Positions 19,627 to 40,144 of a DNA stretch of 40,663 bases are shown piece after piece; positions within the stretch are counted from its first letter, which is position 1; each line of letters opens with the position of its first letter. A program made the position numbers and the translations under genes. Below the pieces are notes generated by a model. It did not search any database. It had not been told where the DNA came from and saw only the letters and a list, made by a program, of their open reading frames with translations. Source of the stretch: Kofleriaceae bacterium (lineage in GTDB: Bacteria; Myxococcota_A; Polyangia; Haliangiales; Haliangiaceae); NCBI GenBank assembly GCA_046597055.1, contig JBKJLC010000193.1:1-40663 (forward strand). Direction: 5' to 3'.

Positions 19627-21059
19627 CAACGTACCTCGACGCGCAGGGCGAGCCACGCGACGTGGTCCCATCGCCGGTAGGTCCCAGCCGCGCTGGGCAG
19701 GCCATAGCCGGCGCGCACGGTCGCGCACGCCGGGAGATCGAAGTCGTGGCCGCGGTCGACGCAGTCGAGTCGGTCGATCGGATCGAACGCGCTCGGGTCG
19801 GCGTCGACCGGCAGCTGGTAGCCGAGCTGGTAGCCGGCCTGCACGATCCACTGCGAGCCGACGCGAAGCTGGCCTCCGATCGCCGCCGTCATCTCGGGCC
19901 CCCAGGGCGAGGTCGGCGAGATCCGATGGCCGCCGGTCGCGCCGGTGTCGACGCCGAACCGACCGCCGACGATCAGGGGCTGCCCGACGTCGATCTGCTC
20001 GAGGCCGAGCTCGACCGCGACCGCGTCACGCAGGCCGCGCGCGCGCGGGAAGTACTCGGGCACGCGGCCCGCTTCGAGATCGCCGCCGTGGGTGCGCACG
20101 TCGAAGGTGCCGACGTTGGCCAGCCGCCGCCAGCGCACCTCGGTGACGATCTCCCACTCGGGCGCGACCGCGGTGCGGGTGCCCAGCCGCCACACCTCGG
20201 GCAGCTCGACGAACACGGTGGCTTCGCCGCTGGCGACCCCGCCACCGTCGCGGGGCGCGGCGTCGATCCGGGCGGTGCCCGAAAGCTCGAACGAGCCCAG
20301 GCTCCACGGTCGCTGGTACGACAGGCCGAGCAGGGTCGCGCTGGGCAGGCGGACCAGCAGCCCCGCCGACAGGATCAGGTTGTTGATGTCGAGCAGGTAA
20401 TCGGGGGCGACCCGGAGCGTCCACAGCTCGGTGGCAGCCGGGTGCTCGAGGCCACACGCCACGCCGCCGCAGTCGCTGGTGACGCCGCGGTCGGGATCGC
20501 GACCGGCGTCGAGCGCCGTGTCGCGCGCGAACTGGAGCGTGGTGCGGCGTTCGGACAGCGTGGCGGAGAATGCCAGGTGGATCGCGCGCCCGTAGCGGTA
20601 GCCGCCGGCGAGCGAGAACCAGTCGACCCGCCGGCTGCGGGTGCCCAGGCTGTGGTAGGCGAGGGCGGCCTCGCCGGTCAGGGTCTCTTCGGGCGGCGCC
20701 AGCGCGGTGGTGGCCGCGATCATGCCGCCAGGCCACGCGAGGATCGCGCCGACCTGACCGCCGGCGCCGAAGGTCCGGCCCCGCGCGGTCGCGCCGGGCG
20801 CGCTGGCGCCGTCGGCGCTGACCACGTCGCGCGCGACCGAGATCTGCTCGAGGCGGGCCGCGCCGTTGAGGAACAGGTGCCAGCCGGGGATCAACCGCAG
20901 CAGGCTGGCCGGATTGGCGATGATGCTGCCGGTGTGAGCCCCGGTCGGGCCGGCGAACACCGCGCCATCGAAGGCCTCCTCCGCCGGCGACGCCGACGCC
21001 GCGGCGCCGAACCACGCCGGCGCGACCAGCGCGGCGATCGCGACCCAGCGGACGAGCAC
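19626..21059 (-). CDS. Outer-membrane beta-barrel, FadL/OmpP1-like transporter
   Basis: Signal peptide, an N-terminal NPA hatch motif (IIANPASL), amphipathic beta strands and two Cys pairs in loops. Confidence 0.6.
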   Translation of the reverse strand: MLVRWVAIAALVAPAWFGAAASASPAEEAFDGAVFAGPTGAHTGSIIANPASLLRLIPGWHLFLNGAARLEQISVARDVVSADGASAPGATARGRTFGAGGQVGAILAWPGGMIAATTALAPPEETLTGEAALAYHSLGTRSRRVDWFSLAGGYRYGRAIHLAFSATLSERRTTLQFARDTALDAGRDPDRGVTSDCGGVACGLEHPAATELWTLRVAPDYLLDINNLILSAGLLVRLPSATLLGLSYQRPWSLGSFELSGTARIDAAPRDGGGVASGEATVFVELPEVWRLGTRTAVAPEWEIVTEVRWRRLANVGTFDVRTHGGDLEAGRVPEYFPRARGLRDAVAVELGLEQIDVGQPLIVGGRFGVDTGATGGHRISPTSPWGPEMTAAIGGQLRVGSQWIVQAGYQLGYQLPVDADPSAFDPIDRLDCVDRGHDFDLPACATVRAGYGLPSAAGTYRRWDHVAWLALRVEVR

Positions 21060-21111
21060 CGCCGCACGGTAGCACCGATGCCTCGGGCCCGCTCGCGACG
21101 CCTCCCCCGGT

Positions 21112-31586: not shown

Positions 31587-31943
31587 TCAACCGTTGGTGC
31601 CGGCGCGGCCGTAGCGGTCCTCGAGCCGGACCACGTCGTCGAGCTCGGGGGTCGACACCTCGAGCACCTCGGTGTCCTCGACCGCGATCATGCGGTGGCG
31701 CAGGCCGGGTGACACGTGAAACGGCTGCATCGCCGTCAGCTCGGTCACCTGCGTCGATTGGTCTTCATCGAAGTGCTCGAGGCGCATGCGCCCGGCCAGC
31801 ACCATGAACGTCTCGTCCTTGACCCGGTGGTACTGCAGCGAGAGCGCCTCGCCAGCCCGGATATGCAGGATCTTGCCGACGTAGCGGTCGGTCTTGGCCC
31901 AGATCAGCTCGTGACCCCAGGGCTTCTCGACCCGCGTGGTCAC
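31587..31943 (-). CDS. Cupin domain protein (mannose-6-phosphate isomerase type II C-terminal-like)
   Basis: VEKPWGHE, LSLQYHRVKDET, HRMIA and EVSTPELDDVVRLEDRYGR. GTGA overlap with the upstream gene. Confidence 0.88.
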   Translation of the reverse strand: MTTRVEKPWGHELIWAKTDRYVGKILHIRAGEALSLQYHRVKDETFMVLAGRMRLEHFDEDQSTQVTELTAMQPFHVSPGLRHRMIAVEDTEVLEVSTPELDDVVRLEDRYGRAGTNG

Positions 31944-32725
31944 TTGGTGGGCGGCTTGGCCGGCGGCTTGGCCGGCGGCTTGGCCGGCGGCGGCGCCGGC
32001 GGGGTGGCGGTGCTCGGCTTGGTGACGCTCAAGTCGCCGGACGCTTCGCCGCTGGTCGGCTCCGGCGCGACGAACTTGTCGCGCACACCCGGGACCTCCT
32101 CGCGACGGTCGACCTTGTTGTCGTAGTCGTCGTCGTAGAGGATCGCGACCAGGTGGCCGTCCTTGTACTGCTCCCAGTAGTCGGGGGTGCCATCGGCGTT
32201 GCGATCGCGGCGGACCGCCGTCAGCGTCTCGAACCGGTCGTAGACCTCGCGGATGTCGTATTTGCCGTCGAAGTCGCTGTCGCGCTCGACCTCGATCCGC
32301 TTGCCGGACTTGGGATCGTAGACCGCGTACATGTCGAACCGGCCGTCGTAGTCGAAGTCGGCTTTCTCGAAGGCGTTCGTGCCGCGCGGGGTGTAGCCGA
32401 CGACCCAGTCCTTGCGGCCGTCGTGGTCGAAGTCGACCTGCTTGCACGACAGCACCTCGAGCTTGGTGCCGCCCTGATCCTCGATCTTGTACATCTTCCA
32501 GACGTCAGGCTTCTGGTCGCGGTTGAGGTCGTAGGTGATGACGTTCTTGCCGCTGGTCTCGCACAGGGTCGGATCGACCTTGGCGACCGTGCTGGATGGG
32601 TCACCGCCGGCGTTGGCCAGGGTGTCCTTCTTCTTGTTCTTGCCGCATGCCGTCCCACCCAGGGCGACAAGCGACGCCAGCAGCGACGCTGTCGCACCGT
32701 GAAGGATTCCCGAGAGGATCCGCAT
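31940..32725 (-). CDS. Lipoprotein with six DxDxDG-type (probable Ca-binding) beta-hairpin repeats
   Basis: Lipobox-like GTAC. Repeats DLNRDQKPD, DFDHDGRKD, DFDYDGRFD, DSDFDGKYD, DRNADGTPD and DDDYDNKVD, then a PPAK-repeat tail. Confidence 0.8.
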   Translation of the reverse strand: MRILSGILHGATASLLASLVALGGTACGKNKKKDTLANAGGDPSSTVAKVDPTLCETSGKNVITYDLNRDQKPDVWKMYKIEDQGGTKLEVLSCKQVDFDHDGRKDWVVGYTPRGTNAFEKADFDYDGRFDMYAVYDPKSGKRIEVERDSDFDGKYDIREVYDRFETLTAVRRDRNADGTPDYWEQYKDGHLVAILYDDDYDNKVDRREEVPGVRDKFVAPEPTSGEASGDLSVTKPSTATPPAPPPAKPPAKPPAKPPTK

Positions 32726-32783
32726 GAGTCGGAGCGTAACGGGGGTCGGGAGGGTACGCAAGGTTCCGTCGACGGCAGCGTGG

Positions 32784-32812
32784 TTGACCCGTGACCTACC
32801 GCAACGTATGGT
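32784..32812 (+). promoter_or_regulatory. Sigma70-type promoter of lepA, TTGACC-N17-TATGGT
   Basis: Near-consensus hexamers with a 17-nt spacer. This supports the start at ATG 32836. Confidence 0.65.
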
Positions 32813-32835
32813 GGTTCGCTTCCGAGCCCTTCAAG

Positions 32836-34638
<1,803 letters not shown>

Positions 34639-34693: not shown

Positions 34694-35842
34694 ATGACGA
34701 TGTCGAGCGTGACGGTGGCGAGCCGGCTCGACCGGCGGGTGATCAAGGAGGCGCGCGGCCTGGTCCGTGAGGGCCGCTCGGCGCTGGGCCGTCGGCTGAA
34801 CGAGCCCGACGCGCGCATCCTCAAGGACCGGTTGACCCGGGTCGAGGCCGGGCTGCGCAGCAACGATCTGGCCACGGTGCGGCGCGAGCTGCCCGGGCTC
34901 GACGCCGTGGTCGACAAGCTCGCCATCGCCAGCCACAAGTCATCGTGGCGCGAGTACGTCGAGTCGATCGGCGTCGCCATCATGATCGCGCTGCTGCTGC
35001 GCGCGTTCGTGGTCGAGGCGTTCAAGATCCCGTCGGCGTCGATGATCCCGACCATGCAGATCGGCGACTTCATCTTCGTGAACAAGTTCCTCTACGGCGT
35101 CCGGGTGCCGTACACGCGCACCAAGCTGTTCGAGGTCCGCAAGCCGGACAAGGGCGAGGTGATCGTGTTCATGAACCCGTGCACGCCCGAGCGCGACTTC
35201 ATCAAGCGCATCGTGGCGGTCGCCGGCGACACGGTCGAGGTCCGCTGCAACGTCCTCCACGTCAACGGGGCCGCCACGCCGTCGGTGCACGTGGCCGAGC
35301 GCTGCGAGTACTGGGACCTGGACGAGGAGCAGGAGATCTGGGAGACCAACACCCAGAAGGGCGCGCCGTGCAGCCACTTCCGCGACACGCTCGGCGGCTA
35401 CACCTTCAGCACCTACCACGACGCCGATCGGCCGCTGCACCCCGACGAGCCGGGTCGCCACGACTTCCCGCAGGTCCCGCGCGACGACCTCGAGCGTCTG
35501 CAGCAGGGCGACGGCATGCCGTCCTGCCGCGGCACCGACCGCCGCAATCCCGAGGAAAAGGCGCGCTCGATCGGCGTCATCGAGCGCACGGTGCCCGAGG
35601 GCACGAGCCCGGCCAGCGCGTGTGCGTTGCACGCGCACTACCGGGTGCCGCCCGGCCACGTGTTTGTGATGGGCGACAACCGCGGCAACTCGGCTGATTC
35701 GCGCACGTGGGGCCCGGTCCCGCTCGATCACATCAAGGGCAAGGCGATGTTCGTCTGGTTCTCGAAGGGCGAGCCGGTCAAGCGCATTTACACGTTCAAC
35801 ATGAACATCCGCTGGGACCGCATCGGCGACTTCGTCCACTGA
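34694..35842 (+). CDS. lepB: Signal peptidase I
   Basis: AFKIPSASMIPT (catalytic Ser), DFIKRI (catalytic Lys) and MGDNRGNSADSR. It follows lepA. The start is uncertain (34682/34694/34700). Confidence 0.95.
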   Translation: MTMSSVTVASRLDRRVIKEARGLVREGRSALGRRLNEPDARILKDRLTRVEAGLRSNDLATVRRELPGLDAVVDKLAIASHKSSWREYVESIGVAIMIALLLRAFVVEAFKIPSASMIPTMQIGDFIFVNKFLYGVRVPYTRTKLFEVRKPDKGEVIVFMNPCTPERDFIKRIVAVAGDTVEVRCNVLHVNGAATPSVHVAERCEYWDLDEEQEIWETNTQKGAPCSHFRDTLGGYTFSTYHDADRPLHPDEPGRHDFPQVPRDDLERLQQGDGMPSCRGTDRRNPEEKARSIGVIERTVPEGTSPASACALHAHYRVPPGHVFVMGDNRGNSADSRTWGPVPLDHIKGKAMFVWFSKGEPVKRIYTFNMNIRWDRIGDFVH

Positions 35843-35927
35843 CGCCACGGCCGGGCCCGCTCGATCGCGCCGACCACGCACGCCCCCGACGGATCCACAT
35901 CGACCGGAGACCTCACCATTTCCGCGC

Positions 35928-36905
35928 TCACGGCCCGCCGAACCAGGCCTCGAGCACGCACGCGGCCGGCTTGCCGCGCGGGGTGTAGCCCTTGTCAGCA
36001 GCCCCGCCCGCGCCCGACCACTCCCACACGAACATCCCGGCGAGCCCTGGCTGATCGGACCACGCGCGGACCAACGCGGCGAACGCGCGCCGCTGCTCCT
36101 CGAGATCGACCGCGGCATCGCGGGTGTAGTCCCACGGCGCGGCGGCGGCACCATCGATCGACGGGTAGCCGATCTCGGTGATCCACAGCGGCAGGTCGTG
36201 GGCGCGGGCGGCCGCCAGCAGCGCCGCCCGCGGCTTGGTCCAGGCACGGGTCAGGGCGTCCTCCGACGCGGTGGCCGAGGTGGTCAGCTCGAAGTAGCCG
36301 GTCACGCCGATCGCGTCCAGGCGGTCCCAGAAGCTCACGTGCTCGAAGTGGTCCCAGTTCGCGGAGTAGAGGAGGGCGCCGTCGAACGTGCGCTCGACCC
36401 GCGAGATCAGGTGGTACCAGCGCTCGCGCCAGGTCTCGGTCGAGCCGAGCTCGGAGCCGACCAGCAGGGCGGCGGCGCCGCCAGCCTGGGCCAGCCGGGC
36501 GTAGTGGACGATGAACCGCTCATAGCTGGTCCACCAGGTGCCGACATCGGACGGCGCGATGGTCCCGCGCCACGCGCCCGGTCCGGTCCGGTCGAGCGTG
36601 ACGATCGGGAACAAGGTCACCCGCAGGCCATGGGCGTGCGCGGCCGCCAGCGCGGCCACGGTCACCTGGTCGCCGACGGTGAGCGGACCTGGGCCGAGTC
36701 GCACCGCCTTGACGTCGGTCTGGGACCAGGTGACGACCAGCGCGACGTCGGTGGCGCCCAGCGCCGCCAGCTCGGCCAGACGTGCGGTGGCGTCGGCTGG
36801 GGTGGTGCCCGCCCACAGGCCCAGCGCAACGCCGCGATGACGAGGTGGGGCGCCGGGTGCGGTCGCGGTACAGGTCGTGCGGCCCGCGGCCCGCGCGCCC
36901 GCTAC
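35928..36905 (-). CDS. GH113 (beta-mannanase family)/GTA TIM-barrel glycoside hydrolase domain with no in-frame start of its own
   Basis: WRGTI, LLVGSEL (acid/base Glu), YSANWD, GVTGYFEL, ITEIGYPS (nucleophile Glu) and YTPRGKPA. It lies in the -1 frame relative to the upstream gene. Confidence 0.8.
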   Translation of the reverse strand, partial: VAGARAAGRTTCTATAPGAPPRHRGVALGLWAGTTPADATARLAELAALGATDVALVVTWSQTDVKAVRLGPGPLTVGDQVTVAALAAAHAHGLRVTLFPIVTLDRTGPGAWRGTIAPSDVGTWWTSYERFIVHYARLAQAGGAAALLVGSELGSTETWRERWYHLISRVERTFDGALLYSANWDHFEHVSFWDRLDAIGVTGYFELTTSATASEDALTRAWTKPRAALLAAARAHDLPLWITEIGYPSIDGAAAAPWDYTRDAAVDLEEQRRAFAALVRAWSDQPGLAGMFVWEWSGAGGAADKGYTPRGKPAACVLEAWFGGP

Positions 36906-36911
36906 TTTTTT
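36848..36911 (-). other. Candidate -1 programmed ribosomal frameshift signal (A_AAA_AAG + downstream hairpin)
   Basis: The upstream CDS ends CCA AAA AAG TAG. A GC-rich stem-loop (36900-36848) begins 4 nt after the heptamer. Confidence 0.6.
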
Positions 36912-37519
36912 GGGGTCTTGGCCGGCAGCGACAGCTGCTTGAGCGAGGTCGCCAGGGCGTCGCCGACCGCGAGCTCGATCGCCTGCTGGATCGCGTACGT
37001 GCGGTCCTTGGGACGCAGCTTCTTGCCGATGTCGATCTTGATGGTCGAGCTGCCGTCGCCCGAGAAGCCCATCTTCCGCTCCGGGATGGTCTCGCCGAAC
37101 ATGCGCAGCGACAGGCGGATGATCAGCCGCTTCTCCTGGTTGATCGCGGCGTCCTTCTCCTCGATCTCCTCCTCGAACGAGGTGATCTCGACGTTGACCT
37201 TGAAGGCACCGTCGATCCGCTTCTTCTTCAGCCATGCGCGGAACTTCTTGGCGTCGGCGGTCGGGTCGGGCGCGCCCGCGAGGCTGGCGACCAGCTGCGG
37301 ATGCCCGGCGAGCGCCTTGGCCACCTCGGCCTTGGTCGGCTCGAGCACGTCGGCGGTCTTGTCGGCGGGGACGCTCTTGACCGCGACCTGGTCGATCGAG
37401 AGGAAGTACTTCTTCTTGGCGGCCGAGGCCGTCGCGGGGAACGCCAGCAGCGCCAGCAGCGCGACGAGCGCGACGCCAGCGACGGAGTGGGGGCGCGAGG
37501 GGCGCATGGCCGGCATCAT
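36902..37519 (-). CDS. Secreted hypothetical alpha/beta protein
   Basis: Signal peptide ending ASA-A and strong host codon usage. Alternative starts at 37516 and 37507. Confidence 0.8.
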   Translation of the reverse strand: MMPAMRPSRPHSVAGVALVALLALLAFPATASAAKKKYFLSIDQVAVKSVPADKTADVLEPTKAEVAKALAGHPQLVASLAGAPDPTADAKKFRAWLKKKRIDGAFKVNVEITSFEEEIEEKDAAINQEKRLIIRLSLRMFGETIPERKMGFSGDGSSTIKIDIGKKLRPKDRTYAIQQAIELAVGDALATSLKQLSLPAKTPKK

Positions 37520-37553
37520 GCCGAGTCGGACGTGCGCGTGCTACCGTTCATTC

Positions 37554-37700
37554 ATGGTTCGTCGACGGTGGCCCGACGTGATCATCGTCGTCGCGATCCT
37601 CGGCCTGACCGGTGCGGGCGTGTGGGCGATCTGGGGCGACGCGATCTGGGGCACGCGCGACCAGCCCAGCGTCGAGCACGTCGAGGGCGACGGCATCTGA
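37554..37700 (+). CDS. 48-aa single-TM protein, Flp-pilin-like
   Basis: MVRRRWPDVIIVVAILGLTGAGVWAIWGDAIW..., preceded by TGCTACCGT-N6-ATG. It lies directly upstream of a CpaF-like gene. Confidence 0.55.
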   Translation: MVRRRWPDVIIVVAILGLTGAGVWAIWGDAIWGTRDQPSVEHVEGDGI

Positions 37701-37737
37701 CCCGTCCGTACGGCCTCCGATCGGGCGCCGGCGTGGC

Positions 37738-37767
37738 TTGACCGTGGGTTGCGGGAAACGTTAGGGT
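37738..37767 (+). promoter_or_regulatory. Sigma70-type promoter TTGACC-N18-TAGGGT
   Basis: Lies upstream of the GGGAGA RBS and ATG 37835. Confidence 0.5.
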
Positions 37768-37834
37768 TTTCGGGCTGGAGGGCGGGTTTTCGGCCCCTGG
37801 CGTGGCCCTGCCTCGGCGTGTTCCGGGAGACCCA

Positions 37835-40144
<2,310 letters not shown>

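Follow-up and report, generated by a model that had tools for sequence, protein, structure and literature searches.

A candidate programmed -1 frameshift joining an exported protein to a GH113 glycoside hydrolase in a Kofleriaceae bacterium and its relatives

The gene pair and its junction

The stretch of DNA analysed here, which we call the window, comprises 40,663 nucleotides (nt) of contig JBKJLC010000193.1 from a Kofleriaceae bacterium (GCA_046597055.1), and all coordinates are window positions. On its minus strand, a gene at 36902..37519 encodes a protein of 205 amino acids (aa) with a signal-peptide-like N-terminus and a Pro/Lys-rich tail, and behind it, in the -1 frame, lies a glycoside hydrolase of family GH113 that has no start codon of its own. 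The upstream gene ends in CCA AAA AAG TAG, which contains a slippery heptamer, A_AAA_AAG (36905..36911, minus strand), composed of the last base of CCA followed by AAA and AAG and phased as X_XXY_YYZ relative to the upstream frame; the 0-frame stop TAG (36902..36904), which terminates the short product, is directly 3' of it. From 36905 the -1 frame runs on for 325 codons without a stop and encodes an entire GH113, with a linker of 21 codons (36843..36905, minus strand) that has neither ATG, GTG or TTG nor a hydrophobic core, followed by a triosephosphate isomerase (TIM) barrel domain of 304 aa (35928..36842, minus strand). The first ATG, GTG or TTG of this frame is the GTG at 36704, codon 68, which sits inside the barrel, 46 codons beyond codon 22, where the strand-1 motif begins, and the linker peptide TTCTATAPGAPPR is encoded upstream of every canonical start. 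An earlier note on this DNA had read the junction as a candidate programmed -1 frameshift fusing the two proteins; the coordinates it gave for the upstream reading frame, its 3' end and the heptamer hold, and GH113 is indeed in the exact -1 frame with no start codon before the barrel.

The codons CCA and AAA at the site are rare, as the earlier note had remarked: AAA supplies 1 of the 24 Lys codons and CCA 1 of the 13 Pro codons of the upstream gene, and across 5290 crudely called genes of the genome they account for 1.6% of Lys and 3.4% of Pro codons. Of these 5290 genes, 11 contain A_AAA_AAN in frame, and the upstream gene alone among them has it immediately before the stop. The genome carries two genes for tRNA-Lys(CUU) and one for tRNA-Lys(UUU). 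A genome-wide scan for similar cassettes returned three matches, namely this locus, one ordinary ATGA pair and one doubtful case. Elsewhere (G000:C193 ~88166-88838, plus strand), a gene that by eye resembles an extracytoplasmic function (ECF) sigma factor contains A_AAA_AAG in frame, five codons short of its stop, and adjoins a probable anti-sigma gene downstream; its -1 frame closes after ~10 codons. The count of six A's at the junction is upheld by contigs of three sequencing runs (X1, X3, X4), which cross the site with 0 gaps and no seventh A; the runs come from one study, X1 possibly being the source of the assembly, and contigs were compared, not raw reads. No RNA run was among those listed in a search of sequencing runs for the locus.

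The upstream protein matches no family in a Pfam search. Its N-terminal ~33 residues look by eye like a signal peptide and contain no Cys. An AlphaFold model, with a predicted local distance difference test score (pLDDT) of 91, aligns by VIA with CsgG (Z 12.8, root-mean-square deviation 3.0, 142 residues aligned), PelC (Z 11.0) and LptE (Z 10.5), and the mature protein is accordingly predicted to adopt the fold of the CsgG/PelC/LptE/PqiC envelope proteins (Z 9-13), from which it differs in sequence, with 6-16% identity and no Pfam match. Unlike the CsgG/PelC-type proteins that form rings in the envelope, it lacks an N-terminal lipoprotein Cys (there is no Cys among the 205 aa), and we therefore do not class it as a ring-forming member of that type. 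Monomeric LptE-type proteins score like the ring-formers CsgG and PelC, and the shared fold shows no function. A complex prediction with four copies of the domain gave a score of 0.00 and no model, which counts neither for nor against an assembly. A search of the ESM Atlas returned unnamed Myxococcota clusters only, the nearest named families scoring <0.9. The protein is present in 41 of 61 related genomes and its gene in 7 of 301 genomes sampled at the level of the phylum.

The -1 product matches PF22612 (E-value 1.1e-43, 150 bits against a cut-off of 27) and the GH113 beta-mannanase AaManA (3CIV/4CD7), with an E-value of 1.5e-35 against 3CIV, Foldseek template modelling scores of 0.82-0.83 and both Glu positions aligned. 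These two residues, E152 and E244 of the -1 product, are among the 59 positions that are invariant in 38 aligned GH113 sequences; we take them to be the catalytic pair from the 3CIV alignment and from what is known of clan GH-A. Identity to AaManA-type enzymes is only ~30%, and in contrast to them the GH113 described here has no start or signal peptide of its own. The domain is, as modelled, an intact enzyme fold, and its beta-mannanase activity is putative. Gene callers would be expected to truncate such GH113s inside the barrel.

The only two Cys of the GH113 frame lie where the earlier note had put them, in the linker (codon at 36872) and at the C-terminus (codon at 35960). Among 38 complete loci, which as kin are not independent, 25 have both a linker and a tail Cys, 11 have neither, none has the linker Cys only, and 2 have two Cys in the tail only; in L004 both the linker and the tail Cys are relocated. 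A Fisher test on this association overstates it, given the kinship of the loci. In the AlphaFold model of the -1 product, the linker is ordered from about residue 10, around Cys12, with pLDDT below 50 for residues 1-9 and a mean of 82 for residues 11-20. The co-occurrence of the two Cys fits a disulfide in an exported fusion, in which a Cys217-Cys521 bond would probably clamp the linker onto the barrel. The GC content at third codon positions in the linker (0.85/0.83/0.87) does not discriminate among the three frames.

Conservation of the junction among relatives

Searches for GH113 detected it in 39 of the 138 family genomes and in 169 of the 401 genomes sampled across the class, and further loci were taken from metagenome contigs (58) and genome contigs (35). 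Of the resulting 192 loci, 154 include the upstream gene; subtracting 4 that end before its stop and 43 duplicates leaves 107 distinct junctions, and the other 38 loci, with GH113 but no upstream gene in view, were left out of the counts. Junctions were classed by the presence of GH113 and of a hydrophobic core in its leader (at least 5 L/I/V/F in 10 residues), never by the motif, except for L056, whose GH113 is interrupted farther along and which was for that reason placed through a motif search; the membership of L041 in the class with its own signal peptide is borderline. Seven of the 107 were too short to class, and three of these carry the motif. In L056 the GH113 lies in two pieces through further frame breaks, by assembly error or decay.

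The class to which this locus belongs, in which GH113 has no signal peptide, comprises 48 junctions, nine genera included, and all 48 are in the -1 phase. A strict in-phase heptamer is present in 43 of them, an in-frame A_AAA in 47, and one or the other in every case. Between the stop and the barrel, 19 different distances were counted, from 17 to 221 nt, every one of the form 3n+2. No in-frame fusion occurs among the 48, nor was one found among 8000 longer-protein candidates, which is weak evidence. The motif is absent from all 14 junctions whose GH113 has its own signal peptide, where the phases are spread 7/4/3, and it is present in 2 of the 38 junctions without GH113 (L019 and L127). The strict heptamers are A_AAA_AAA (27), A_AAA_AAG (12), A_AAA_AAC (3) and G_GGA_AAG (1), so that the slippery site proposed by the earlier note stands, whereas its A_AAA_AAG form is the minority version in the family. 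The 5' A of the heptamer is supplied by CCA (15), GGA (8), GCA (7), CGA (6), TCA (3), CAA (2), AGA (1) and ACA (1), and its retention through rare codons of many amino acids indicates that the base is selected and not the residue. In the 48 upstream genes, AAA and AAG number 42:762 within the gene body but 82:23 over the final four codons; in the two remaining classes, where the tails are Lys-rich as well, the final four codons give 1:16 and 12:61.

These counts bear directly on the reading that the junction is an assembly error, a phase-variable DNA tract or a decaying pseudogene. Homopolymers are prone to assembly errors and slipped-strand mutation, and GH113 is often lost in the family; against this stand the contigs of three runs that agree without an indel, a phase shared by 48 of 48 junctions in which an in-frame allele was never seen, and the 59 invariant positions of the enzyme, both Glu included. 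Conservation refutes such an artefact or pseudogene, and we regard it as hardly credible.

The same comparison informs a second alternative, in which ribosomes re-initiate at a codon overlapping the stop, as in a decayed GTGA coupling with the A-run acting as an initiation enhancer, and make a separate cytoplasmic enzyme and no fusion. The outgroup pairs lend this some substance: their GH113 has its own start, often a GTG whose GTGA overlaps the stop (6 of 14 junctions), and its own signal peptide, and ATGA/GTGA coupling likewise places the second gene in the -1 phase. In the 48 loci, the stop is overlapped by ATA in 26, by ATG or GTG in 4, by GTA in 10, by CTA in 4 and by CTG in 4; at this locus the overlapping codon is GTA. 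Both GTA and CTA are very poor start codons. No canonical start lies 10 nt or less from the upstream stop at this locus; one does in 4 of the 48 and in 9 of the 14 own-signal junctions. Low-level initiation at a -1 frame AUA behind a sequence resembling a Shine-Dalgarno (SD) element has been described (PMC4066793), and coupling and recoding can coexist (PMC3711429). Against re-initiation, the A-run is in the same codon phase whether it abuts the stop or is separated from it by one codon, a GC stem lying directly over the start would be expected to hinder initiation, and the enzyme would be left without a signal peptide, whereas its paired Cys suggest an oxidising compartment and most outgroup GH113s have signal-peptide-like N-termini. 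We consider re-initiation as the sole explanation very unlikely. Four junctions (L015, L045, L116, L144) combine an ATGA/GTGA overlap with a slippery site and lack a signal peptide, and in these coupling and frameshifting could both operate.

The earlier note had named observations that would count against its frameshift proposal, among them a seventh A and relatives whose GH113 has an independent start and signal peptide. Such relatives do exist, but they fall outside the slippery clade and none of the 14 has the motif; nine genera share the heptamer, the stop and the -1 phase, and the proposal came through these tests intact. In a FastTree phylogeny of 102 upstream proteins (185 columns; 5 short ones omitted), all junctions without a GH113 signal peptide are in one clade, with weak support (0.62), and the own-signal junctions are outside it. 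Within the clade GH113 has been lost at least 5 times, and the motif has gone too in all but L019 and L127; a joint loss of GH113 and motif separates the sisters L105 and L115, and likewise L046 and L018 (support 0.99). L127 retains G_GGA_AAA, and its -1 frame encodes only a short stretch like the last GH113 helix, by eye the remnant of an internal deletion. Where GH113 has been lost, a signal peptidase gene often seems, by eye, to lie directly 3' of the upstream stop.

We infer that the own-signal relatives mark the ancestral state. The simplest order of events, read from the tree of upstream proteins and not from a rooted species tree, would run from coupled to slippery to lost: a coupled two-gene operon whose GTGA overlap was already in the -1 phase would have acquired an A-rich slip site in its Lys-rich tail, GH113 would then have lost its start and signal peptide, and the slip site would decay once GH113 is lost. 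The frameshift device would thus have replaced an ordinary translationally coupled pair.

Slippage and its stimulators

Taken together, the anatomy and conservation of the junction make it very probable that a fusion is produced by slippage of one kind or another, and programmed -1 ribosomal frameshifting probably accounts for it, yielding a minor, exported fusion of ~530 aa. For most ribosomes translation would end at TAG with the 205-aa precursor. In a minority, probably paused by the stop codon together with a GC stem 4 nt downstream, the two Lys-tRNAs on AAA and AAG would slip in tandem onto AAA AAA, one base back; all 205 residues would be kept, and translation through the linker and GH113 would add 325, giving a precursor of ~530 aa to be exported by the signal peptide of the upstream gene. 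The most likely purpose of the shift is dosage together with export, with little hydrolase made per upstream protein and that little tethered to it.

The stem differs from the one first proposed. The long GC hairpin described in the earlier note (36848..36900, minus strand) is the minimum-energy structure, yet it does not exceed chance, since 122 of 200 shuffled sequences fold as well (z +0.30). The stem common to relatives is shorter, and the homologous candidate stimulator at this locus (36873..36900, minus strand) starts 4 nt past the heptamer and forms 7 of the first 10 anchored pairs. Across the family loci, the folding energy of 40-nt windows is lowest in those beginning 0-6 nt past the site (-20.7 kcal/mol against -16.6 kcal/mol further on, and lower in 31 of 45 loci). 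When the arms are anchored at their ends, on the heptamer and the Cys codon, pairing reaches 67% as against 29-52% in slid registers, with C-G/G-C swaps (17 loci), a level attained by 1 of 2000 arm shuffles. A 3' stem is likely in the family, though not necessarily in every member. In bacterial -1 frameshifting of the dnaX/IS3 type, an in-phase X_XXY_YYZ heptamer or Z_ZZN tetramer usually comes with a stem-loop or pseudoknot 4-10 nt 3' of it, though this structure is not obligatory. As an intrinsic terminator the stem was rejected, because no TTTT follows within 80 nt of the stop in any of the 48 loci, and a promoter and terminator scan of 35700-37900 gave no match.

The A-run could also be slippery to RNA polymerase, which would add one A so that ordinary translation gives the same fusion. 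An A-run is present in all but one locus; four related loci (L026, L028, L045, L144) have 9-10 A, and L026 is nearly devoid of a downstream fold (-5.1 kcal/mol). Among species dnaX alternates between the two mechanisms, with a second Lys tRNA as the suggested cause (PMC5009743), and this genome has both Lys tRNAs. A run of about 9 or more A/T is cited for transcriptional slippage (PMC1088944, PMC5009743). Here the run has 6 A, and across the family it has 6-7 A in 41 of 48 loci, 3-4 A in 3 more and at least 9 in 4. The runs moreover hold codon phase, the G_GGA_AAG and G_GGA_AAA heptamers suit tRNA re-pairing instead, and the stem lies 3' of the site, where ribosomes would be the ones affected. 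Because of the 6-7 A runs, the fixed phase and the G_GGA_AAR sites, we favour the ribosome as the agent and consider transcriptional slippage rather unlikely as the general mechanism; the four loci with 9-10 A may use either. The polymerase may slip in addition to the ribosome and could be chiefly responsible in this one sub-clade, where a switch from ribosomal to transcriptional slippage is possible.

Several observations weigh against ribosomal frameshifting and temper its assignment. The loci are kin and not independent, and the clade that holds all 48 has the weak support given above. An ATG or GTG overlaps the stop in the 4 loci already counted, and in 12 of 48 strand 1 is preceded by a canonical start at a distance of more than two codons. 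Five of 48 lack a strict heptamer (G_AAA_AAA in three, A_AAA alone in two) and would need single-tRNA slippage. The anchors of the pairing analysis were chosen by eye after some sequences had been viewed, and 13 of 30 Cys-bearing loci were omitted from it for length; the mean stem z against shuffles is only -0.66, with z below -2 in 6 of 48; and in 13 of 45 loci, this one included, the stem is no stronger than its own downstream controls. No conserved SD-like element precedes the site, GGAG, GAGG or AGGA being present upstream in 9 of 48 only; a 5' SD stimulator is optional, being present in dnaX and apparently absent in csoS2 (PMC5009743). The two tRNA-Lys(CUU) genes are a further point. A_AAA_AAG is described as among the most efficient motifs in E. 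coli (PMC4066793), and a second Lys tRNA has been suggested to hold AAG tightly, a possible reason why T. thermophilus dnaX uses polymerase slippage (PMC5009743). Given these tRNA genes and the preference of the family for A_AAA_AAA, the efficiencies of E. coli dnaX cannot be assumed here. In L046, L047 and L143 a minimal A_AAA stands directly before TAG (CGA AAA, ACA AAA), where single-tRNA slippage would be needed with the stop codon in the A site.

Neighbourhood, implications and known systems

The gene pair lies head to head with a gene for an ATPase with FHA and T2SSE (CpaF-type) domains (37802-40144, plus strand), and between them a small open reading frame (37560-37700, plus strand) with one hydrophobic helix is pilin-like by eye, with no Pfam match. 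In most scanned paired loci the pair is likewise head to head with Tad/Flp genes (L035, L043, L060-L063, L065-L067, L163, L171, L178, L181, L183, L187), the neighbours being the FHA-CpaF-type ATPase in the family and Flp pilin, A24 prepilin peptidase and a secretin N-domain in the outgroups. Tad-like machines are reported to kill prey in Myxococcus (PMC8460266). The link between the gene pair and such a machine is a lead, not a result. It admits a more ambitious reading, a cellular analogue of decorated phage coats, which we regard as doubtful, in which the upstream protein forms an envelope oligomer with the Tad/Flp machine and a frameshift grown from a stop-start overlap sets the number of subunits that bear a hydrolase. 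Decoration of a ring by the fusion is possible, and in such an oligomer the hydrolase may target the cell's own polysaccharide or the envelope of prey. On the other side of the pair, a LepA-like GTPase gene by eye (32791-34638, plus strand) and a signal peptidase I gene (PF10502; 34682-35842, plus strand) converge on the end of GH113. Farther away are a gene for a probable lipoprotein in which DxDxDG-like motifs recur and the tail is built of PAKP repeats (31940-32761, minus strand) and a tRNA-Arg(CCG) found by ARAGORN (20992-21078, minus strand).

Few conserved frameshifts are described in non-mobile chromosomal genes (PMC5009743). Gene-fusing shifts were predicted in Gammaproteobacteria in 129 of 18,672 cases, and such sites are expected to be rare in high-GC genomes (10.1101/2025.10.02.679949). 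The present locus is a strongly supported new candidate for a conserved chromosomal frameshift in a high-GC genome. Our literature search, which did not extend to subscription journals, found no description of it, and the GeneTack paper (PMC3711429) has no Haliangium or Myxococc- in its main text and no match in two supplements. An enzyme without start codon and signal peptide that is exported via its neighbour's signal peptide was likewise not found in the literature examined. On the more ambitious reading above, one family would display the whole life of a recoding signal, from birth in a GTGA coupling through drift between ribosome and polymerase to decay upon gene loss. Since the coupled, slippery and lost states all survive, the origin of programmed frameshifts from overlapping operon genes becomes directly testable, and the natural series of motifs (A_AAA_AAA, A_AAA_AAG, A_AAA_AAC, G_GGA_AAG and A_AAA-stop) probes the rules of frameshifting in an organism with two lysine tRNAs.

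Among known systems, E. coli dnaX is likewise a chromosomal, non-mobile gene with A_AAA_AAG, and its 3' stem-loop has a candidate counterpart at the locus. In the reversed form of dnaX predicted in Chlorobium phaeobacteroides, as in the arrangement described here, the 0-frame stop comes immediately after the slippery site and the long product depends on frameshifting (PMC5009743). Unlike dnaX, the family described here has no conserved SD stimulator, prefers A_AAA_AAA, would make exported products and gains its extension from a formerly separate gene. The earlier note had thought recoding of a carbohydrate-active enzyme very unusual, but a precedent exists in fucA1 of Sulfolobus solfataricus, a chromosomal alpha-L-fucosidase of family 29 that needs a -1 shift at A_AAA_AAT with a putative stem-loop, and whose frameshifting amounts to 5% in E. 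coli (PMC1616953). In fucA1 the shift connects the two portions of a single enzyme (81 + 426 aa; PMC1616953), whereas at the present locus it would link complete folds that are unrelated to each other. The short product here is by itself an entire protein, and nine bacterial genera retain the site. In phage lambda G/GT and in the immunoglobulin-like coat extensions of phages T3 and A2, a -1 shift near the end of a complete gene adds a C-terminal domain to a minority of subunits (PMC5009743); the locus described here differs from these in being cellular and chromosomal, and in that the domain added would be an enzyme.

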